This document shows positions 1,992-22,908 of a DNA stretch of 64,000 bases, piece by piece. Source of the stretch: a virus (lineage: Duplodnaviria; Caudoviricetes). A program made the translations under genes and the position numbers. The stretch lies in the IMG/VR virus record IMGVR_UViG_3300049182_000044, positions 64,001 to 128,000 of that record; one strand, 5' to 3'. Under the pieces are notes generated by a model that had not been told where the DNA came from, searched no databases, and saw only the letters and a list, made by a program, of their open reading frames with translations. Numbering within the stretch: the stretch's first letter is position 1; each line of letters begins with the position of its first letter.

Positions 1992-2516
1992 ATGGCACAA
2001 TTTCTCGGTAATTGCGAGTTCAGGAAAATCGACCTTTCGGAACGCCTCGCAATACCTCCTTTCCCAAACAAGTTTCCCACGCATCATCGCCTGTCGAAGG
2101 CCGTGCGTCGCATTAAGCTCGGTGCGCGCAAGAACCCGAGTGCAATCTACCGCACCACGTTCATGGTATTTGTCGCCGACGATAAGTTTGGAATATGTAA
2201 ATTGACGATTGTGCATGGCCGTCATGCGCGTCGCAATTCTCGTAACGGCAAGATGCACCTGGACTTCCATACCGACTATCCAAAACATCAAGTGATCGTG
2301 TTCGCCATGACTGACACTGGTTCGTACAGCACGGAAAAGCTGAATGAACTGTTCGACGAAACACATGCTCATCTGTGCCAAGGTCTCGACAACATCTCGT
2401 TTGGCTGGGTGCCGCCCTCTGGAACGAATCGAGGCAATGTACGCCAGACGTTCAACGTGTTTCCCCAGGAGCCGGGCATGACACCGATCAATACCGTAGA
2501 AGAAAGCAAAACATGA
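1992..2516 (+). CDS. Hypothetical protein
   Basis: 174-aa ORF, ATGA overlap with ugd. Confidence 0.65.
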   Translation: MAQFLGNCEFRKIDLSERLAIPPFPNKFPTHHRLSKAVRRIKLGARKNPSAIYRTTFMVFVADDKFGICKLTIVHGRHARRNSRNGKMHLDFHTDYPKHQVIVFAMTDTGSYSTEKLNELFDETHAHLCQGLDNISFGWVPPSGTNRGNVRQTFNVFPQEPGMTPINTVEESKT

Positions 2517-3904
2517 ATGTAACAGTTATTGGGACAGGCTATGTCGGACTTGTGACCGGCACCTGTCTGGCTGAATTGGGGAACAATGTCGTATGTCTCG
2601 ACGTTGACGCAGACAAGATCGCCATGCTCAAGAACGGTGAATGCCCGATCTACGAGCCGGGTCTGAAAGAAATGATCCAGCGTAACGTCGCGGCTCGCCG
2701 TTTGCAGTTCACTACAGATGTGGCCTTCTCCGTAGATCATGGACTGTTCCAGTTCATTGCAGTAGGTACGCCTCCTGCCACTGACGGTTCGGCTGATTTG
2801 CAGTACGTCTATGCAGCGGCTCGTAACATCGCCGTTCATGCGCGTGGCATGAAGATCATCGTCAATAAGTCTACGGTGCCTGTCGGCACGGGTGACGAGG
2901 TCGAGCGAATCATTATAAGTGCTCAACGCGAAGAGCGTATGGGTACTAACTGGATCGTCGTTTCCAATCCAGAGTTCCTGAAAGAGGGAGCTGCGATTGA
3001 AGACTTCATGCGGCCTGATCGTATCGTGATCGGCATGAATCAGATGGCGGATGCCTACATCAACACCGCAACTCGTGAGGCGTTGACTCGTCTCTATGCT
3101 CCGTTGAATCGCAACCACCAACGTACCATCTGGATGGGTCGTCGTGCAGCAGAACTCACCAAGTATGCTGCGAACGCTATGCTTGCGACACGCATTTCGT
3201 TTATGAACGAACTGGCTTGCCTTGCGGAGAAAGTGCATGTTGATATTGACGATGTACGGCGTGGCATCGGCAGTGACACTCGCATCGGTTACGACTTCCT
3301 GTATGCGGGTCTCGGCTACGGTGGCTCGTGCTTTCCCAAGGACGTTCGTGCCCTGAGCGAAACCGGAATGCAGAACGACTGCCAGATGCACATCCTCGAT
3401 TCCGTCCACTACGTCAATCAGAACCAGCGCATCAACATGCTGAAGAAGATCGACGAGCGCTTTAATCACGACCTTGGCGGCAAGACGATTGCAGTATGGG
3501 GCTTGTCATTCAAGCCAAATACCGACGATATGCGCGAGGCACCTTCGCTCGACATTATCAAGCGTCTGATCCATACCGGAGTTACCGTCAACATCTATGA
3601 CCCGGTTGCTCAACACGTTGCGTACAAAGAGCTTGAAGCGCTTTGTGAAGAAGGTGGTATGGACATCGGCATGGTGAACCGCTGTGTCAGCATGCTCGAC
3701 GCCGTTGCGGGTGCAGACGCCCTTCTCATTTGCACTGAATGGAAGGAGTTTAAGACACCTTCTTTCCACGAAATGGCTCGTCTGATGAAACACAAGATCA
3801 TTTTCGACGGTCGCAATCTCTACAATCTCGAACAGATGGAAGAGCATGGATTCGAGTACTACGGTGTAGGTCGTTCAGCTGGAGCTTATCGTGCTAAGAA
3901 CTGA
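2513..3904 (+). CDS. ugd: UDP-glucose 6-dehydrogenase
   Basis: VIGTGYVG Rossmann motif, FIAVGTP, NKSTVPVG, SNPEFLKEG, catalytic GYGGSCFPKD, FKPNTDDMRE, DGRN; true start MNVTVIG at the ATGA overlap. Confidence 0.97.
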   Translation: MNVTVIGTGYVGLVTGTCLAELGNNVVCLDVDADKIAMLKNGECPIYEPGLKEMIQRNVAARRLQFTTDVAFSVDHGLFQFIAVGTPPATDGSADLQYVYAAARNIAVHARGMKIIVNKSTVPVGTGDEVERIIISAQREERMGTNWIVVSNPEFLKEGAAIEDFMRPDRIVIGMNQMADAYINTATREALTRLYAPLNRNHQRTIWMGRRAAELTKYAANAMLATRISFMNELACLAEKVHVDIDDVRRGIGSDTRIGYDFLYAGLGYGGSCFPKDVRALSETGMQNDCQMHILDSVHYVNQNQRINMLKKIDERFNHDLGGKTIAVWGLSFKPNTDDMREAPSLDIIKRLIHTGVTVNIYDPVAQHVAYKELEALCEEGGMDIGMVNRCVSMLDAVAGADALLICTEWKEFKTPSFHEMARLMKHKIIFDGRNLYNLEQMEEHGFEYYGVGRSAGAYRAKN

Positions 3905-15105: not shown

Positions 15106-15708
15106 ATGCTTAAATGGCTAGATAAGATCCTTGGACGGAATAACGAGGAAGGTTCACTGAAAAGTATCACGTTCGATCCAGTTGAATTGATTCAGTTCCG
15201 CGTTGATCGTCGTGTGTTGACAGGCGATCCTGAAGTGACAGTCTACGTCCCGCAATATCGTACTAGGGTCTTTTACGAGTCTAACACACGCCTCAAGGTA
15301 GCCGAAGGTGGATACTTCAGGCGTGCGGTGTTGACCTCTCAACCACCTGAAAACAAGTGGACACCTTGGCAGGACTTCCAAGCGACAGATGATTGCGGTT
15401 GCCCGCTGCATTTCTCGCTCACTGCATACAGTGCAACGCGCACGGTGAAGACCGAAAACTGTAAAAACGTGGTACAGGCGTTGCGGCCAATTCGCATCAT
15501 CGAAACAGAAGGTTCGATGGGTATGGATAAGAACACCTGGGTCGGGAACATCTTGCGCAACGAAACACGTAAGGTGTACTGCGGCAGCGGTGACGGCGTG
15601 GAAGAAGAGTTCTATGTCGTGCGTACCCTTGGTGGCATGAAAGAGATGTGGGTGGCTGTCTCCGCTACTACTCGCGCCGAAGACGGTGTGATCGAGTATC
15701 GGTATTAG
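15106..15708 (+). CDS. Hypothetical protein (start MLKWLDK)
   Basis: A-rich leader before ATG 15106; the upstream extension lies in the structured region. Confidence 0.65.
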   Translation: MLKWLDKILGRNNEEGSLKSITFDPVELIQFRVDRRVLTGDPEVTVYVPQYRTRVFYESNTRLKVAEGGYFRRAVLTSQPPENKWTPWQDFQATDDCGCPLHFSLTAYSATRTVKTENCKNVVQALRPIRIIETEGSMGMDKNTWVGNILRNETRKVYCGSGDGVEEEFYVVRTLGGMKEMWVAVSATTRAEDGVIEYRY

Positions 15709-15747
15709 TTCTGTAAATCGTAATTAGGTAGTTCATTTTAGTACCGT

Positions 15748-15823
15748 GGGGCGTTAACTCAGTTGGTAGAGTAGCGGACTCTTAATCCGTTTGTCGTAAG
15801 TTCGATCCTTACACGCCCTACCA
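15748..15823 (+). tRNA. tRNA-Lys(CTT)
   Basis: 76-nt cloverleaf, GCGGA-CT-CTT-AA-TCCGT anticodon arm, TTCGATC T loop, encoded CCA. Confidence 0.95.
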
Positions 15824-15881
15824 AAGTTTCCATAGTAGTGCAGATGCGCGAAAGCGAGTTCTTACTTCTGCATTACTCACC

Positions 15882-15957
15882 GGGTCGTTAGCTCAGTCGG
15901 TAGAGCAGCGGACTTTTAATCCGTTGGTCGCGTGTTCGAGTCACGCACGGCCTACCA
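15882..15957 (+). tRNA. tRNA-Lys(TTT)
   Basis: 76-nt cloverleaf, GCGGA-CT-TTT-AA-TCCGT, encoded CCA. Confidence 0.95.
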
Positions 15958-16111
15958 AGTTTGTCGTAGTAAAGAGTTGTAACTGCCATGTGGGTGGGTA
16001 CCTGCATGTTGTCGTAAGAATGGCCAAAAAGCCGGACCTCAATTTGTGCGAGTCGAAAGGCTCTCACCAGTGTAGACAGTCCTTACAGGGGATCGCAGTT
16101 AGCTGTTACGT

Positions 16112-16187
16112 GGGGCGTTAGCTCAGTTGGGAGAGCAGCGAACTTTTAATCCGTTGGTCGCTGGTTCAAACCCAGCACGCCCTACCA
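16112..16187 (+). tRNA. tRNA-Lys(TTT), variant with A30:C40 mismatch
   Basis: 76-nt cloverleaf, GCGAA-CT-TTT-AA-TCCGT, TTCAAAC T loop, encoded CCA. Confidence 0.85.
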
Positions 16188-16205
16188 AATTTTAGAAAGT
16201 GCGTT

Positions 16206-16409
16206 ATGTCCAATGAGTACAAGATTGCAACCTACAGCTTCGCTGTAGCAGAAGCAGTACGCGTGGTCTTCAATCACGAAAAGATTCCGTTTGAAAGCGC
16301 AGTCGGTGCGGGTTCGGTGATCGTCATCCTTGTACCCATGGAGCATAAGGCTACCGCACAGAACGTGCTACGTCAATGGAAGTCCGCCATAGCGCAGATT
16401 CAGATTTAA
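16206..16409 (+). CDS. Small hypothetical protein between RNA genes
   Basis: 67-aa ORF filling the gap between tRNA and tRNA-like RNA. Confidence 0.55.
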   Translation: MSNEYKIATYSFAVAEAVRVVFNHEKIPFESAVGAGSVIVILVPMEHKATAQNVLRQWKSAIAQIQI

Positions 16410-16410
16410 C

Positions 16411-16539
16411 GCGGGTATCGTCGAAGGTATGGCTATCGTAGTAAAGGCGTACAGTCATGTGCGTCTACATGGGGCAACTTAACAGTTGCAGCTACGACGT
16501 TCCCATGTTTCGTGAGTTCAAGTCTCACTACCCGCACCA
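16411..16539 (+). ncRNA. tRNA-shaped RNA A (129 nt), anticodon arm replaced by a structured insert
   Basis: Acceptor GCGGGTA/TACCCGC plus A-CCA, D arm GTCG-AAGGTA-TGGC, T arm GTGAG-TTCAAGT-CTCAC. Confidence 0.7.
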
Positions 16540-16654
16540 CTCCCTTATAAGAGAAAAAGAAATGGGAATCAAAGGCTACGTGATTGCCTGTGCAATCGCT
16601 TCATTGCTCGTCGCCGTGATCGCCACATCTAATTTGTTGACGATGCAGTAACAA

Positions 16655-17325
16655 CAGTGTGTTTAACACCCCGTCTAAGTGGAAAACGTTGCATTAAGCG
16701 TAGAAACGAACTTAGGCATTGAGCAAGCCAAGTGTTCTTGGACAAGACAAGGGATACTCTTTTGGTTCGCAGGTACCTGTGGACATACAAGTCTGAAGAG
16801 AAACGAAGTCCTGGGTAGGCCGCCCAGGCTAAGTCTAACTTGAACCGAGTGATTGCCTGATGTGGCAGCAATCTGTCACGGGGTGCTAAACACATTTCAA
16901 AGAATACGTTCTGCGAGAGATCAATACACAGTGAGTTCGGAGGTGCGGCGGGAACCATGCCTCGGAGCGGACAACAGTCTGTGCAGCAGAACGTTATATG
17001 CGTATGTATTGACGTAGGCAGTTAGACGCTGGCGCGCGATGATGGTAACTGGCAACGGTTACTTGGGCCATGCGAGACAAAACGATCACAGACCGTTACT
17101 GCTTACTTCAATATGTATTCAGTGTGTTTATGACGCACCACATTTGCGCGCACTTGCTAGAGACAGGTGTGTTCGCCCAGGTCGAAAGGCCCTCCTGCTT
17201 AACTAGCGGGCGGTTGTATAGGCTGCGAGGGCGTTTAGCAAGCAGTACGGCGTTCTGTTAGCCTGTAAGGGTGTGGGCCGGGTAGTGAAATAGCTACGAA
17301 CGTGGGGCGCCATAAATACATTGAG
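16655..17325 (+). ncRNA. Candidate large structured ncRNA, copy 1 (boundaries approximate)
   Basis: No ORF with RBS; long nested helices (GTGTTTA..CACCCCGT/ACGGGGTG..TAAACAC; ACGTTCTGC/GCAGAACGT; GTAGGCAGT/ACTGCTTAC; GNRA loops); core shared with 19590-20035. Confidence 0.6.
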
Positions 17326-17333
17326 TTTATTCT

Positions 17334-17506
17334 GGCGGGGTATGCATATTGGAGTAGCTGCGATTGACCGAACCGTGGAGTCCTAGGGTCGGTGAGGTCG
17401 TCGTGGTCGAGTTGGGAACAAGCACTTTGGGAGGTCGGGTAACGTGCTCGATTGAACATTGTGACTCCGACTCGGCGTGAAAGTTCGATCCTTTCCCCTG
17501 CTGCCA
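17334..17506 (+). ncRNA. tRNA-shaped RNA B (173 nt) with greatly extended anticodon-position and variable arms
   Basis: Acceptor GGCGGGG/CCCTGCT (two G:U) plus G-CCA, T arm GAAAG-TTCGATC-CTTTC, two long internal helices. Confidence 0.6.
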
Positions 17507-17587
17507 ACGATTTCGGGACTCGTAGTTTATTCTTCGTCGAGCCGCGTTCAGCATGGGTGACCAGGTCACGTAAGTGCTGATGTTAGT

Positions 17588-17675
17588 CGGGGCGAGGGAG
17601 TAAGAACGTGTTGACTGTGATGCGCTATGCTAAATGGTCAATAAGGTGCAGGTTGAAACCCTGTCGGCCCGACCA
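17588..17675 (+). ncRNA. Degenerate tRNA-like element C (Pro-like acceptor); 5' end uncertain, could be 17514
   Basis: 3' end GCAGG-TTGAAAC-CCTGT-CGGCCCG-A-CCA; 5' CGGGGCG pairs with one G:G mismatch; no canonical anticodon arm. Confidence 0.35.
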
Positions 17676-17690
17676 ATTTCAAGGAATACC

Positions 17691-18083
17691 ATGAGTAACG
17701 CCACACCCCGATATGCAACGGTAGACGCGAACAAGATGATTATCACAGATGGTAATCATGGCGGTTATCGCACTGGCTTCTGCGCGGTCTGCGAAGCGAG
17801 CGGTTGGTTGGATGTACCGAAAGGTGCGTCGAACGGGATAGTTCATAAACCAGACTGCGTAGTTGGCATTGCACTGAGCGCACTTCAAGAGATGAAAGTG
17901 CTCGACCTGGTGAAGATGTCAAATTTGACCTACTCACTGCCATCCAACAATTTCGCCAATCAGCCGTTTATAATGGCTGATGCATTGAAACGCAGCGATC
18001 TGGAAATGGTCATGAGCTGCCGTGACTTTGACCGCATTGAAGCAGACCAAGAACATACTGTGCTTATCTGGTACAAGCAGTAA
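17691..18083 (+). CDS. Hypothetical protein (CxxC...HxxxC)
   Basis: AAGGA RBS before ATG 17691; FCAVCE...HKPDC. Confidence 0.6.
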   Translation: MSNATPRYATVDANKMIITDGNHGGYRTGFCAVCEASGWLDVPKGASNGIVHKPDCVVGIALSALQEMKVLDLVKMSNLTYSLPSNNFANQPFIMADALKRSDLEMVMSCRDFDRIEADQEHTVLIWYKQ

Positions 18084-18088
18084 GCACG

Positions 18089-18185
18089 AATCGAACAAGC
18101 GCATCGCGTATCTGGATGCCTCAAAAGTCACGGCTGAATGTGTAAGCTTAGTTAATCCGTGCCAGCCGGTGCGCTTGTTTCGATT
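18089..18185 (+). ncRNA. Candidate structured RNA (long closing helix)
   Basis: AATCGAACAAGCGCATCG (18089-106) pairs CGGTGCGCTTGTTTCGATT (18167-85). Confidence 0.4.
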
Positions 18186-18191
18186 AAATTA

Positions 18192-18332
18192 GTCTGTGCT
18201 CCAGCGAAGATTAACTGGAACGAGAACGTTGGAACAACTCAGCTTTCCTAGGATCGGTGAGCCGACGTCCAGACCGGTAGTCCTTAATCCCCATACTCTC
18301 GTAGGGCGAGCCGGATGTTGGAGTACAGACCA
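18192..18332 (+). ncRNA. Candidate multi-junction RNA with 14-bp closing helix ending ACCA
   Basis: GTCTGTGCTCCAGC/GTTGGAGTACAGAC; internal GATTAA/TTAATC, CTGGA/TCCAG, TCGG-TGAG-CCGA. Confidence 0.45.
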
Positions 18333-18349
18333 ATTTAGAGGAGCTTCAA

Positions 18350-18508
18350 ATGAAACTGAAAGAAATGTTTTCAGTCGCCTGGTGGAAGAAGTACGTGGGC
18401 TTCCAATTCACGCGCTATGATTACAGCGGCAGCGATGGTCGCCGTGTCACAGACTGGATGTTGCATCTGGGCTTTTTCGCAATCACGAAGCATCGTATTG
18501 CGCGGTAA
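18350..18508 (+). CDS. 52-aa hypothetical peptide
   Basis: Not in ORF track; GAGGAG RBS; MKLKEMFSVAWWKKYVGFQFTRYDYSGSDGRRVTDWMLHLGFFAITKHRIAR*. Confidence 0.5.
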   Translation: MKLKEMFSVAWWKKYVGFQFTRYDYSGSDGRRVTDWMLHLGFFAITKHRIAR

Positions 18509-18689
18509 GGATTCCACAACGGCCCTAGTCGGGGCGGATCGTAGTTCAGGGGAAGAACAACCGCCGTAAGGTGGGAAGTCGCCGAATCATCTAAGGTCGA
18601 TCCTTTGCGTTGTGGTGCAGTCTTCAGTGCTAAGTCGCCAAGTCGTTGAAGAAGCTTAATAACCTTTTTCGACAACTTAGGAGGCGAGC

Positions 18690-19181
18690 ATGGGAGCAGC
18701 AGTAATTCAGCTGAAGTGCGCACGTTGCAAAGCGAAGTTTGAAAAGAAACTAGCTGAGTACACGTATCAATTGCGCAAGGCAGGCGTTTTAGACAAGCCA
18801 TTCTTTTGCAGCAGGGCATGCGGTCAAGCGTATTCAGGCGAGACGTTTCAAGCGTTCACCGATATTCGCGCAATCGCTAAAAGCCTCCGCAATCGAGAGT
18901 GGCCTTGATATGAGAAGTTAGACCGTTATCTAAAATCAACGGGGCTTACGTACCGATTCGAGTTCTTCTTCAAGAAGCACCGATTCGTGTACGACTTGGC
19001 GATAAAGGAACTGCGGTTGATATTCGAGTTCGATGAAGCGTATCACTACGATGAAACCGTCAGGCTTGTAGACAGAGCGAAGGACAAGCTCGCGAAGTCG
19101 AAAGGCTACACTGTGATTCGTGTGCCTTGTTCCAACGGTGCGGTTCTGTCACCGAAACTGATAAAGAAGCATTTGAAGTAG
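18690..19181 (+). pseudogene. Zn-finger plus Vsr/DUF559-like endonuclease with one in-frame TGA (18906-08)
   Basis: CARC...FFCSRAC N terminus; the same frame continues past TGA into YEKLD...FEFFF...YDLAIKELRLIFEFDEAYHY...RAKDKLAKSKGYTVIRV. Confidence 0.7.
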
Positions 19182-19189
19182 TACAGAAT

Positions 19190-19580
19190 TTATGGTTGTG
19201 TGCGTAGCGTAATCTACGCGAGACGTTTGCGTGAAGGCATGGCGGACGGGAGTTCGATTCTCCCCACCTCCACCACCAGCACTTTGAACACCCGGTGATG
19301 GCCGGGAGTTTGACCATGTAGGGTAACGGCCCCATAGCAGCCGCTACAGGACCAGTTGCGATACAACTGCAAAGCGCTGTTGATGGGGGTGACCTGGTTT
19401 CGACGGCGTGAGATAGCAAGAACTACAACTCAGCAGGCGATCGCTGACTCTTCGGAGTGAATCGAAGCAAAAATAGTAAATGCAAACGACTCGCATTTCC
19501 TGCAAGCTGCAAACGCCTAATTAAGCGTTTCACTTCAGGCTAAGTGACTACGGGGTCTGTTGACATAGCGCTACGGCGCG
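19190..19580 (+). ncRNA. ssrA: Circularly permuted (two-piece) tmRNA
   Basis: Acceptor piece ends GGAC-GGGAG-TTCGATT-CTCCC-CACCTCC-A-CCA (19275); coding piece starts GGGGGTG (19385), G3:U70 present; tag GCA AAC GAC...TAA at 19482-19520 = ANDSHFLQAANA; outer boundaries approximate. Confidence 0.9.
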
Positions 19581-19589
19581 CCGTCTTCG

Positions 19590-20035
19590 TGTACGTAGTT
19601 AGTCCGGCCACTCCACCTTTCGCCGATAATGACGCGACTGCGCGTGGGTGTCTTAGTCAGCGCGTAAGCGCACCGAAGCCGGACTACCCAGTTTCAAACC
19701 TCCAAGGTCAGAGAGCACTACACAGTGAGTTCGGTCTAAACTTTAACCATTTAGTCACCGAGAGACGATTTCCGTTATAGCAATCTGGATCGGACAACAG
19801 CCTGTGCAGCCAAAGGAGGGCCCAACGTAAAACGTTCTTCATCGAGCGTTTTACGTTGGTGACGGCAAAGCCGTTAAGGTGCGGACATAGAGCTATTGCA
19901 GCTTCAGCGTGGGTACGAACACTAATCGCATGGAGGAACCCCACCGGCGATGAAGTCGTAGGATGTGAAAGCCCGCTACGCTGTCACCAACATTCTCAAA
20001 TCGCGACCTAAGGTGGTCCCGATCATTCAACTTTA
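19590..20035 (+). ncRNA. Candidate large structured ncRNA, copy 2 (boundaries approximate)
   Basis: TAGTCCGGC/GCCGGACTA helix, 16-bp hairpin CCAACGTAAAACGTTC/GAGCGTTTTACGTTGG, core shared with copy 1. Confidence 0.6.
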
Positions 20036-20055
20036 ATCCATTGAAAGGATTTATC

Positions 20056-20607
20056 ATGAACTCTGCAACACAATTCCCCACCTCGTCTTCTCTTCTCGAA
20101 AAAGCAGCACACTACGCGACAACATTGTTCGATGCGGATAATCTTAAGTTCGATGCGCCGATCTTCACCGATCAGTACGTATCCTTTCCCATGACACACA
20201 GCCTCAACATCGACGGCGACTTCTTTATCAGGGCGCAAAGCGTTGGTGTAACATTCAAAGGTGAGGACGTACGGCTGTTCTATCTACTGCAGGATATGGT
20301 CAAGCGCCATCACCTGCATTTCAGGGTTCAGCACGAAGGTAAATGGGAATACTTTAACCCGCACTTGGCTGGTGAAGGTCAGTTCTCGATGAAGAACCCT
20401 TGCACGTTCTATCTTGCGGGTATTGCAAGCGGAAATCTCAAGGGCTGGTCGGACATTCCTATCAGCCGTGACCCTGCAACATTCGATGACCGCGCAAAGT
20501 TCCTCGCGGTCTTGCTGTATCGTGAATGGGTGCGTCAGATGATGCCCATCATTAAGATGTATCAGTGGTTCCGTGCAAACGACTTACTTGCACCTATCGT
20601 CAAATAA
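20056..20607 (+). CDS. Hypothetical protein
   Basis: GAAAGGA RBS before ATG 20056. Confidence 0.7.
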   Translation: MNSATQFPTSSSLLEKAAHYATTLFDADNLKFDAPIFTDQYVSFPMTHSLNIDGDFFIRAQSVGVTFKGEDVRLFYLLQDMVKRHHLHFRVQHEGKWEYFNPHLAGEGQFSMKNPCTFYLAGIASGNLKGWSDIPISRDPATFDDRAKFLAVLLYREWVRQMMPIIKMYQWFRANDLLAPIVK

Positions 20608-20661
20608 TGTAAATGACGGGTGATCGAAAGGTCACCCATTTTCAACTTAGAAGGGAGAAAA

Positions 20662-21048
20662 ATGAAAACATGGCAAATCGTGGCGTTGGGTGTCCTGGCA
20701 CCCACAATCGCTGCGGGTATTTGGCTGGTGAATGCACCGGCTACCAAGGCAGTAGCACTCGTTGACAAGGCGACTGATACGACGAAGATGCTGGCGAACT
20801 ATGAATGGTTCCACGAAGCATCTACGAACTTCAACGCCCGTGTCAATCAGATCAAGTCGCACAAGACTTTGATCGCAAACGAGACTGACAAGGCTGAACT
20901 GTCTCGCCTCCGCATGGAAGCAGCAGCCGTACAACAAACATGCCGTGACCTCGTTGCGAAGTACGCGGCCAAAACCAACCAAGTCCACGTAGGCTACCTC
21001 AAAGGTAAGAGCCTGCCTGAAGCACTCGATGCAGGGAGCTGCGAATGA
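20662..21048 (+). CDS. N-terminally membrane-anchored helical protein
   Basis: GGGAG RBS; TM WQIVALGVLAPTIAAGIWLV; ATGA-coupled to the lipoprotein. Confidence 0.7.
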   Translation: MKTWQIVALGVLAPTIAAGIWLVNAPATKAVALVDKATDTTKMLANYEWFHEASTNFNARVNQIKSHKTLIANETDKAELSRLRMEAAAVQQTCRDLVAKYAAKTNQVHVGYLKGKSLPEALDAGSCE

Positions 21049-21539
21049 AACGCCTTCTGATTGCCCTTTTCCTCCTTCCTCTGACCTTCGTTCTCACCGC
21101 ATGTGAAGAAGACAAGCCGACGCCGGTGAAGGCAGAACAAGCAGCCAAAGCACGCGCGGCTGCGAACAGCATCAACTTCACTGAGAACGCTGAAATCGAC
21201 AACATCAAGAAGCGCCTGGAGTTGACCTCCAAGAACGATCTTGTCGGCTTCATCATCCTGTTGAACGAGAGCGGCCAGCCGGTGATGTACACTTCGATCA
21301 AAGGCAAGCCCACTTCGGGTGGCAAACGCCTGACGGAACCGGATCGTTACTGGGGCAACTCGACACATGCGGGGATGCGTGCCGCGCCGAGTGACGAGGG
21401 CACTTACGGCTCCTCTGGTGAGTATGTCTTCTTCTGGACGGTGGATGGCCAGTACATGCAATGGAACGGCAAGTACCTGTACTCGGACAAGCCTTTCCGC
21501 CTGAGCGTACAACCGCTGGTTGTCAACGTCAAGGAGTAA
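21045..21539 (+). CDS. Predicted lipoprotein (conserved phage hypothetical)
   Basis: Signal with lipobox LTA-C; KGKPTSGGKRLT and PSDEGTYGSS motifs. Confidence 0.75.
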   Translation: MKRLLIALFLLPLTFVLTACEEDKPTPVKAEQAAKARAAANSINFTENAEIDNIKKRLELTSKNDLVGFIILLNESGQPVMYTSIKGKPTSGGKRLTEPDRYWGNSTHAGMRAAPSDEGTYGSSGEYVFFWTVDGQYMQWNGKYLYSDKPFRLSVQPLVVNVKE

Positions 21540-22908
21540 CGCTATGGGTGTGGCTTCGGTCACACCCAATTGCCTTGATAGGTGCGTCTTCAATGAGGAT
21601 TCACCTATCAGATCAATGTCAGCGGAGTTTTACGTGTCAGCCCTCACCCTTAACGTGCAACAAAAAGAGGCGTATGACGGGATACTGAACTTCTTATCGT
21701 ATAACCAAAACGAGCATAAGTTTTATGTGCTCTCAGGATGGGCAGGCACCGGCAAGACGTACTTGCTCGGGGCGTTGCACGAAGCGTTAGACCGATACGG
21801 CTCAGTGTTCACAGCGCCAACGAACAAAGCAACTAAGGTAACATCTAGAACAATTGGTGCGGGAGCCCAATGCAAAACCATCTACTCGCTCCTGGGCATT
21901 CGCATGGTGGCGAACGAAGACCGCATGGTCTTAGAGTTTCCTAAGAAGCCCGTAGACCTCAGCGGCTATAGTCGAATCTATGTCGATGAAGCCTCAATGG
22001 TCAATGAGTCACTTCTGGCTTACATCCGTGATCGTAGTCGATACTCGGCCACCAAATGGATCTTCATCGGCGACCGTGGTCAGTTACCTCCTGTCGGTGA
22101 GAAAGAATCGAAGGTGTGGACACTAAAATGTCCTAAATCACACCTGGAGAAGGTAGAGCGCTACGACAACGAGATCCTTGAGTTTGCTACACACGTTCGC
22201 AAATGCATTCAGAGGTATCCAGATGGCTCTCTGCGTATGCGTAGCAATCACAGCGCAAGCGAAGGCGTGTGGAAGTACAATCGCGGCGGCTTCATGCGTA
22301 ACATTGAGCGTGCTGCCAAGAGAGGCCTGTTCACCGAAATAGATAACACAAAGGCCATCGCGTGGCGTAACAAGACGGTCAATGAGCTGAATCAATTCAT
22401 CCGCTACAACATCTTTGGTAAGGTCGCAGACAAACAACCGTGGCTGCCCGGTGATCGCGTGATGATGGGAGAGCCTGTTCAGATCGGCAGCGCAATCATT
22501 GCCCACGTTGATGATGAAGGTACCGTAGTCGAGGAAGGTGTCGCCTACCACAGCGAGTACAAAGACTTCAATGCGTATCATGTGACTGTTCAGATCGACG
22601 ATGGCCCGGCTGTCCAGTTGAACATCATTCACGAAGACTCGCAAGCCAAATTCGTCCGACGCCTAGGTGAATTAGCCTTAATGGCTAAGAAAGAAAAGCA
22701 CTACTGGCGGGAGTTTTGGGCGTTGAAGAACGCTTTTCAAAGCATTCGGCATAGCTATGCCTTAACTGCTCACCGGGCGCAGGGCAGTACGTTCACGAAT
22801 ACGTTCTTGGATACTGCTGATATTCTGGCTAATTCCAACTCGTATGAAGCACTTCGATGCTTGTACGTAGGTGCAACACGCGCTCAATCCAATCTTATTC
22901 TTGTCTAA
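21520..22908 (+). CDS. Superfamily 1B helicase (Dda/RecD-like); start uncertain
   Basis: GWAGTGKT, APTNKA, VDEASM, IGDRGQLPPV, YALTAHRAQGSTF, LYVGATRA. Confidence 0.9.
   Translation: MSTSRSNAMGVASVTPNCLDRCVFNEDSPIRSMSAEFYVSALTLNVQQKEAYDGILNFLSYNQNEHKFYVLSGWAGTGKTYLLGALHEALDRYGSVFTAPTNKATKVTSRTIGAGAQCKTIYSLLGIRMVANEDRMVLEFPKKPVDLSGYSRIYVDEASMVNESLLAYIRDRSRYSATKWIFIGDRGQLPPVGEKESKVWTLKCPKSHLEKVERYDNEILEFATHVRKCIQRYPDGSLRMRSNHSASEGVWKYNRGGFMRNIERAAKRGLFTEIDNTKAIAWRNKTVNELNQFIRYNIFGKVADKQPWLPGDRVMMGEPVQIGSAIIAHVDDEGTVVEEGVAYHSEYKDFNAYHVTVQIDDGPAVQLNIIHEDSQAKFVRRLGELALMAKKEKHYWREFWALKNAFQSIRHSYALTAHRAQGSTFTNTFLDTADILANSNSYEALRCLYVGATRAQSNLILV

Follow-up and report, generated by a model that had tools for sequence, protein, structure and literature searches.

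The stretch of DNA analysed here (hereafter the window; 64,000 nucleotides (nt), bases 64001-128000 of the 281,566-bp (base pairs) IMG/VR virus record IMGVR_UViG_3300049182_000044, rated 100% complete) carries on its + strand an RNA-gene island from 15748 to approximately 20056. The island comprises three transfer RNA (tRNA) genes for Lys, a two-piece, circularly permuted transfer-messenger RNA (tmRNA) gene, a few small open reading frames (ORFs), and two copies (A and B) of a short RNA element, hereafter the core, one on each side of the tmRNA gene; a Dda-type helicase gene lies downstream of the island. The source virus is an uncultivated jumbo phage. The single sequencing run listed as containing the phage is a DNA run of a soil metagenome, which is probably its source; no RNA run was listed. 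A previous examination of the letters of the window, without database searches (the sequence-only reading), had interpreted two blocks, 16655-17325 and 19590-20035, as two paralogous large ornate RNAs with a common, covarying center, possibly of a new family. The coordinates of the features are given in Table 1.

The repeat itself was confirmed. The 16-mer TACACAGTGAGTTCGG is exact at 16925 and 19719, with no third site even at two mismatches, and the 20-mer CGGACAACAGYCTGTGCAGC has exactly two sites in the window, at 16968 and 19791; neither recurs in the rest of the 281,566-bp genome, and for each of them none of 100 shuffles yielded two matches. The phage genome contains exactly two copies of the core, both by pattern search and by covariance model. 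The shared blocks are longer than first noted: 16916-16940 is identical to 19710-19734 at 23/25 positions, and 16964-16987 to 19787-19810 at 22/24. The insert between the conserved blocks varies, as had been described (23 nt in A and 52 nt in B), and since these lengths differ by a number that is not a multiple of three, there is no common reading frame. The paralogy of the whole blocks was not confirmed. For the upstream flanks (16655-16905 vs 19440-19698), 34 of 300 shuffles scored at least as high as the real local alignment, and for the downstream flanks (16995-17325 vs 19820-20035), 299 of 300 did, whereas the local alignment score of the cores was 40 against a shuffle mean of 14 and was reached by none of 300 shuffles. 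Thus, with the flanks at shuffle level and the cores above it, the paralogy is limited to the two cores. The term "large ornate RNAs" is not supported either: the conserved unit is 89-121 nt here and 93 and 153 nt in a related phage (see below), it is an unbranched hairpin with two internal loops, and its flanks are not homologous but consist of independent modules, which also occur in relatives that have no core.

The core is one rod-like, unbranched hairpin with three helices (P1, P2, and P3) and two asymmetric internal loops. P1, the terminal helix, has four different sequences in four copies (A, B, and two copies in the related phage). That the enclosing helix differs by copy had been seen correctly: it is ACGTTCTGC/GCAGAACGT (9 bp) in A and CCTCC..GG/CC...GGAGG (5+2 bp with an internal loop) in B. 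In the first internal loop, a purine-rich strand of 12-13 nt, (G/C)AGAGA-N-CA-NNN (SAGAGANCA...), which is near-invariant (SAGAGANCAMNM), is opposite CA (CAG in B). P2 has 5 bp, CACAK/MUGUG, and the pairing of CACAG with CTGTG proposed for A and B was found in both. The second loop places UGA opposite RAYAGN (AACAGY in A and B). P3 is GUUCG/CGGAC in A and B, reaches 10 bp in B, and ends in a tip of variable length. The unconstrained minimum free energy (MFE) structure of A by RNAfold agreed with the model in P1 and P2 but shifted the register of P3; RNAfold of B recovered P1 and P3, and the unconstrained MFE structure of the first copy in the related phage was a similar three-helix rod, again with a shifted register of P3. 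A/U-rich linkers are present at both ends of every one of the four copies. The TTTCAAA noted before both enclosing helices is present in A and B (it has just six + strand sites in the 64 kb) but is not kept in the related phage, where the linkers are U-rich; it is a possible, candidate processing site. The U-rich 5' linker could pair with AGAGA, a match of low complexity.

Homologs of the helicase were found in a collection of 5.8 billion proteins, and their contigs were taken for the motif search. Two covariance models were used, R1 (built from copies A and B alone) and R2 (built from all four copies). R1 found two further copies, C1 and C2, in L045, a Logan contig whose helicase is 61% identical. 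These are in tandem, 7 nt apart, between the tRNA-Thr (594-669) and tRNA-Leu (1200-1286) genes of L045. Their P1 helices are GUAUCGUGU/ACACGAUAC and AUACCGUG/CACGGUAU, their P2 is CACAU/AUGUG (a G-C to U-A switch compared with A and B), and their loops retain AGAGA-N-CA, UGA, RAUAGN, and UGUGCA. Four copies in two phages thus have P1-P2-P3 with compensatory changes and keep SAGAGANCA, UGA, RAYAGN, and UGUGCA. Over the four copies, 95.9% of 73 cells were paired, vs 23-44% when the partners were slid by 1-3 columns; changes on both sides were found in 10 of the 19 pairs, and the observed covariation score was reached by 0 of 500 shuffles. Pairing was found in 70/73 cells on the + strand vs 65/73 on the - strand, and because seven of the cells are G-U, the + strand fits better. 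The pairing, the compensatory changes, the strand bias, and the lack of a common reading frame are good evidence for a structured + strand RNA. Accordingly, what stands of the sequence-only reading is a structured + strand element with a covarying enclosing helix, present twice in the phage with one copy on each side of the tmRNA. B and C2 have CAGAGAGCAC and long tips in common, and A and C1 have GAGAGA and short tips; this hints at two motif subtypes, which are not established.

Table 1. Features of the RNA-gene island and homologous features in related contigs (positions in the window, or in the contig named)
Feature	Position	Strand	Remarks
Three tRNA-Lys genes	15748-16187	+	within the RNA-gene island
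TTTCAAA linker A	16895-16901	+	A/U-rich; 4 nt before P1 of core A
Core copy A	16906-16994	+	89 nt; model R1 95.6 bits
Core A, P1	16906-14/16986-94	+	
Core A, J1/2	16915-26	+	GAGAGAUCAAUA
Core A, P2	16927-31/16979-83	+	
Core A, UGA	16932-34	+	
Core A, P3	16935-39/16968-72	+	GUUCG/CGGAC
Core A, variable tip	16940-67	+	
Core A, J3/2	16973-78	+	AACAGU
Core A, CA	16984-85	+	
Module M2	17014-17106	+	conserved RNA motif distinct from the core
Module M3	17130-17313	+	conserved RNA, ~185 nt; closing helix AUGACGCACCAC/GUGGGGCGCCAU
tRNA-like RNAs	16411-16540; 17334-17506; 17588-17675; ~18520-18620; L042:1052-1177		
Endonuclease frame	18690-18908 + 18987-19181		DUF559/Vsr-like; stop-interrupted
tmRNA gene, two-piece, circularly permuted	19183-19611	+	ARAGORN; tag ANDSHFLQAANA
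TTTCAAA linker B	19692-19698	+	abuts P1 of core B
Core copy B	19699-19819	+	121 nt; model R1 142.3 bits; starts 88 nt past tmRNA end
Core B, P1	19699-19707/19810-19819	+	
Core B, J1/2	19708-20	+	UCAGAGAGCACUA
Core B, P2	19721-25/19802-06	+	
Core B, UGA	19726-28	+	
Core B, P3	19729-33/19791-95	+	reaching 10 bp
Core B, variable tip	19734-90	+	
Core B, J3/2	19796-19801	+	AACAGC
Core B, CAG	19807-09	+	
16-bp hairpin	19822-19859	+	directly 3' of core B; no U-tract; inverted repeat I6, 94% complementary
Leader of downstream 183-amino-acid gene	19897-20056	+	conserved; not part of the core
Dda-type helicase gene	21520-22908		downstream of the RNA-gene island
Core copy C1	L045:766-858		93 nt; R1 36 bits, E 7e-10
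Core copy C2	L045:866-1018		153 nt; R1 34.6 bits, E 2e-9
M2 homologs	L042:1186-1292; L044:612-748; L045:1303-1442 and 2364-2545		
M3 homologs, extents	L045:1458-1650; L138:2188-2416; L043:820-1034		
Acb2/Tad1-hairpin/Acb3 family genes	L042:3982-4323; L043:8950-9303; L044:10115-10444; L138:9613-10053; L048:4706-5518		

The family was then delimited by database searches. The cmscan search against Rfam 15 that the sequence-only reading had proposed as a check was performed at gathering thresholds for the whole window and at E<=10 for 15500-21000; it returned no match of any kind on 16655-17325 or 19611-20035, only the tmRNA, tRNAs, and noise elsewhere, and no named class matched. The suggestion of a new RNA family is therefore supported against Rfam 15, and the family now reaches a second phage. 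In IMG/VR, scans with the 16-mer, with the gapped pattern GAGTTCGG..CGGACAACAG, and with the 5' block (strict and relaxed forms) gave chance matches, which were without the P2 partner or in long ORFs, and none of these scans gave a copy outside this genome. The pattern scan of Joint Genome Institute (JGI) metagenomes gave five chance matches, and the core pattern had no match in the GTDB genomes. Blastn of the region against GenBank phages gave no match, tblastn of the helicase against them gave one distant 40-kb phage, and a search for related loci with the helicase alone found none. R2 detected nothing more in 1.34 Mb around 80 IMG/VR and nine other helicase relatives, nothing in the whole 286-kb jumbo relative G001, nothing in L138-L142 or L178, and, with the filters off, nothing in the islands of the closest relatives. 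Since the R2 and pattern scans were nearly empty, the family is narrow and patchy. Measured against Rfam 15 and the databases scanned, the core is predicted to be a new clade-restricted RNA family, with two copies in this phage and two in one related contig.

Comparison with relatives showed what surrounds the cores. Beyond the core, block A consists of two further modules, M2 and M3, and block B of the 3' tail of the tmRNA, a 16-bp hairpin, and the leader of the downstream gene. M2 has a closing helix GUAGGCAG/CUGCUUAC, UUAGACG..GCGCGCGAUGAUGG, a hairpin, CUUGGGC..CGAGACAAA, and a second hairpin; the consensus across its copies is UUAGACG, GCGCGYGAUGAUGG, a hairpin, CUUGGRC, CGAGACAAA, a second hairpin, and the closing helix, which clearly covaries over five copies. 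M2 had no Rfam match, and its exact pattern had no match in IMG/VR and the GTDB genomes. In L042, L044, and L045, M2 is located approximately 100 nt upstream of a gene for 175-195 amino acids, a riboswitch-like placement. M3 gave BLAST matches in L045 (1380-1650), L138 (2188-2416), and L043 (926-1034); its closing helix covaries (AUGACGCAGCAC/GUGCCGCGUCAU in L043), and it occurs in relatives without the core. A part of M3 (17266-17288) is 87% complementary over 23 nt to 16525-16547 (inverted repeat I1), the latter being the 3' end of a tRNA-like RNA (T-stem, acceptor strand, and CCA). The leader is 80-81% identical to L041 484-642 and L138 3102-3256 and ends in a hairpin, AAUCC-AUUGAA-AGGAUU, which covers the ribosome-binding site just 5' of the start codon. 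The same type of leader (AAUCC-AYUGAA-AGGAUU) was seen at a gene for 172-195 amino acids in relatives (L042:1316-1371, and the gene starts of L043, L044, L045, and L140).

The permuted two-piece type of tmRNA is common to L041 and L138. Here the tmRNA matched Rfam RF04321 with 98.5 bits at 19221-19520. It also aligned to the betaproteobacterial model RF01850 at 19159-19565 with 71 bits, below the cut-off of 84; because of this alignment, there is a weak hint that the phage host may be a betaproteobacterium. Just upstream of the tmRNA is a DUF559/Vsr-like endonuclease frame, whose second part matches PF04480 (E 9e-5); it is probably a decayed homing-type endonuclease gene. The island and L042 also contain tRNA-like RNAs, in which the acceptor and T arms are intact, CCA is present, and large inserts replace the anticodon arm; these were called by neither ARAGORN nor Rfam. 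They may be of the same kind as T4 RNA C, by analogy, because the end of RNA C is likewise a T-arm-like CCGGGUUCGAAUCCCGG hairpin. In relatives, proteins of the Acb2/Tad1-hairpin and Acb3 families (cyclic-nucleotide sponge families) are encoded a few kb downstream of the helicase, from which it follows that the clade invests in counter-defence.

L138 is the closest relative with a complete island and encodes a 425-amino-acid Dda-type helicase, like the 76%-identical P0002. The order of its island is tRNA-Lys, an HNH gene (in the island equivalent to ours), tRNA-Leu, M3, tmRNA, and leader. The gap between the tmRNA and the leader (19611-19897) is 286 nt in our phage vs approximately 140 nt in L138 and L041, and core B fills it; core B looks like an added module. 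The module order differs among the phages, and homing-type endonuclease genes or their relics are found in these islands.

With moderate confidence, we favour the interpretation that each copy of the core is a separate small non-coding RNA module of the + strand (approximately 90-150 nt), which would be cut from the tRNA/tmRNA transcript and act in trans via a bound protein. The core would be co-transcribed with the tRNA/tmRNA cluster and then released by host enzymes of the tRNA-processing or RNase E type, which would cut at the A/U-rich linkers, after which P1 would shield the RNA ends. The two invariant internal loops would provide the binding surface for a protein, either a phage partner or a factor of the host (in translation, RNA processing, or defence), and the RNA would serve in trans as a stable cofactor or decoy, the role assumed for T4 RNAs C and D. 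By context, this RNA C/D pair is the nearest analogue. The biological roles of these RNAs (species 1 and 2 stable RNAs) are unknown (PMC3014915). The T4 genes rnaD and rnaC are 119 and 139 nt, 6 nt apart, and directly after tRNA-Arg; the core resembles them as a small same-strand non-tRNA RNA in a phage tRNA cluster with short linkers, with the tandem copies of L045 only 7 nt apart. RNA C differs in having a tRNA-type T arm, which the core does not have. Homology to rnaC/rnaD was rejected: a search of T4 68000-76000 by R2, with the filters off, gave nothing at rnaC or rnaD (2909-3172 of L179).

Several points weigh against this interpretation. The core is missing from the complete island of L138, even by R2 with filters off; since the closest relative with a complete island does not have it, the motif is dispensable or mobile. 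Four copies in two phages are too few for an R-scape-type statistic. In addition, the identity is 91% for A-B and 81% for C1-C2, and 70-84% between phages; because the copies within a phage are more alike than those between phages, the four are not independent, and this likeness suggests that the copies were duplicated recently, underwent gene conversion, or co-evolved with a phage-specific partner. Searches of the phage genome for genes of Ro60, RtcB, and a CCA-adding enzyme found none, and the protein-binding or decoy role is pure inference.

Alternatively, the motif could serve to process the island transcript, as a small self-cleaving or RNase-guiding element whose invariant loop nucleotides would be catalytic, so that the transcript would be cut between RNA genes. 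Variable, covarying helices round invariant loop nucleotides, within 60-150 nt, are indeed the architecture of small ribozymes such as hairpin, hatchet, and twister; the copies lie between RNA genes that need separation (in tandem in L045), and the adjoining single-stranded linkers are A/U-rich. However, the core matches no Rfam ribozyme family at E<=10 (hammerhead, hairpin, twister, twister-sister, pistol, hatchet, and HDV-like), and the usual processing of tRNA clusters relies on host RNase P/E, with no ribozyme involved. We therefore regard this as unlikely.

The core could also act in cis on transcription or expression, either as a put-like antiterminator for read-through of the structured island or as a leader or riboswitch, which we consider similarly improbable. 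HK022 putL and putR are hairpins found twice per genome, whose conserved unpaired nucleotides bind RNA polymerase. The core, too, has two copies per phage genome; core B is placed between the tmRNA and the protein-gene block that comes next, and conserved hairpin loops would suit binding of RNA polymerase or a ligand. The put sites, however, are cis-acting and located just past early promoters, whereas the core copies are among stable RNA genes: core A and both L045 copies precede other RNA genes, not ORFs, and tandem copies are unexpected for an antiterminator. As for a leader or riboswitch, the downstream gene has its own conserved leader in relatives without the core. A scan for promoters and terminators showed no standout pattern.

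There is a comparably small chance that the core belongs to a new functional RNA class of jumbo phages, acting as a self-cleaving ribozyme that processes the island, or as a decoy or sponge that captures a signalling nucleotide or a factor of host defence or translation. In that case it would join the phage tmRNA and the tRNA-like RNAs lacking an anticodon in an RNA-based counter-defence island.

Less probable again is a DNA-level repeat with an incidental hairpin, either the relic of a small cassette that moved or was duplicated, or a site recognised by a recombinase or homing nuclease. The patchy occurrence among close relatives, the wide gap in which core B lies as if inserted, and the endonuclease genes or relics of the islands (the DUF559 part at 18987-19181; HNH in L138) are in its favour, and homing nucleases reshuffle the tRNA region of T4 (PMC2330249). 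On the other hand, the four P1 sequences all stay complementary and P2 changes on both sides, which would be unexpected under neutral decay or for a DNA site recognised by a protein; one strand is favoured by the G-U pairs; and the terminal repeats of mobile elements are conserved, not variable.

GOLLD and ROOL RNAs, of several hundred nt and multi-branched, occur in phages and prophages, often beside tRNA genes, and their function is unknown. The original idea of two GOLLD/ROOL-like large RNAs of approximately 450-670 nt with a common core is largely refuted and very improbable, for although both blocks are without convincing ORFs and stand in an RNA-gene island beside tRNAs and the tmRNA, their flanks are dissimilar, M2 and M3 are found in relatives that have no core and in other orders, the remainder of block B is tmRNA tail and gene leader, and GOLLD, ROOL, OLE, HEARO, and RNase P gave no Rfam match at gathering threshold or E<=10, the core itself being unbranched and 89-153 nt.

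Other identities were tried and rejected. Core B is not part of the tmRNA: the tmRNA ends at 19611, L041 and L138 have a homologous tmRNA without the core downstream, and copy A and the L045 copies are not beside a tmRNA. Y RNA/YrlA was rejected, since a search of the phage genome for a Ro60 (TROVE) gene found none, with the search control positive in two genomes, and the sole match of the YrlA model (31 bits, cut-off 69) covers the tRNA-Lys genes, not the core. Several further motifs were considered from the sequence and dropped, as none fits all four copies: a K-turn, a loop E/sarcin-ricin motif, a CsrA-type GGA sponge, type III antitoxin repeats, and a relic of a T-loop or T arm (the tmRNA T arm also contains GAGUUCG).

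The motif alone is of moderate interest, because thousands of orphan phage RNA motifs have already been catalogued: a catalogue of candidate structured viral RNAs lists 10,006 such RNAs (csRNAs) (PMC10690425), and the core, too, is an orphan phage motif resting mainly on covariation and genomic context. Its value hinges on its partner or activity. The core adds a covariation-backed, four-member RNA family to the poorly understood non-tRNA stable RNAs of large-phage tRNA clusters, a puzzle dating back to T4 RNAs C and D. The whole modular RNA island is more remarkable than the single motif: as a mosaic, it combines at least three conserved RNA modules, unclassified and unrelated to one another (the core, M2, and M3), with tRNA-like RNAs and a permuted tmRNA, and it is therefore a good system for asking what such islands do.

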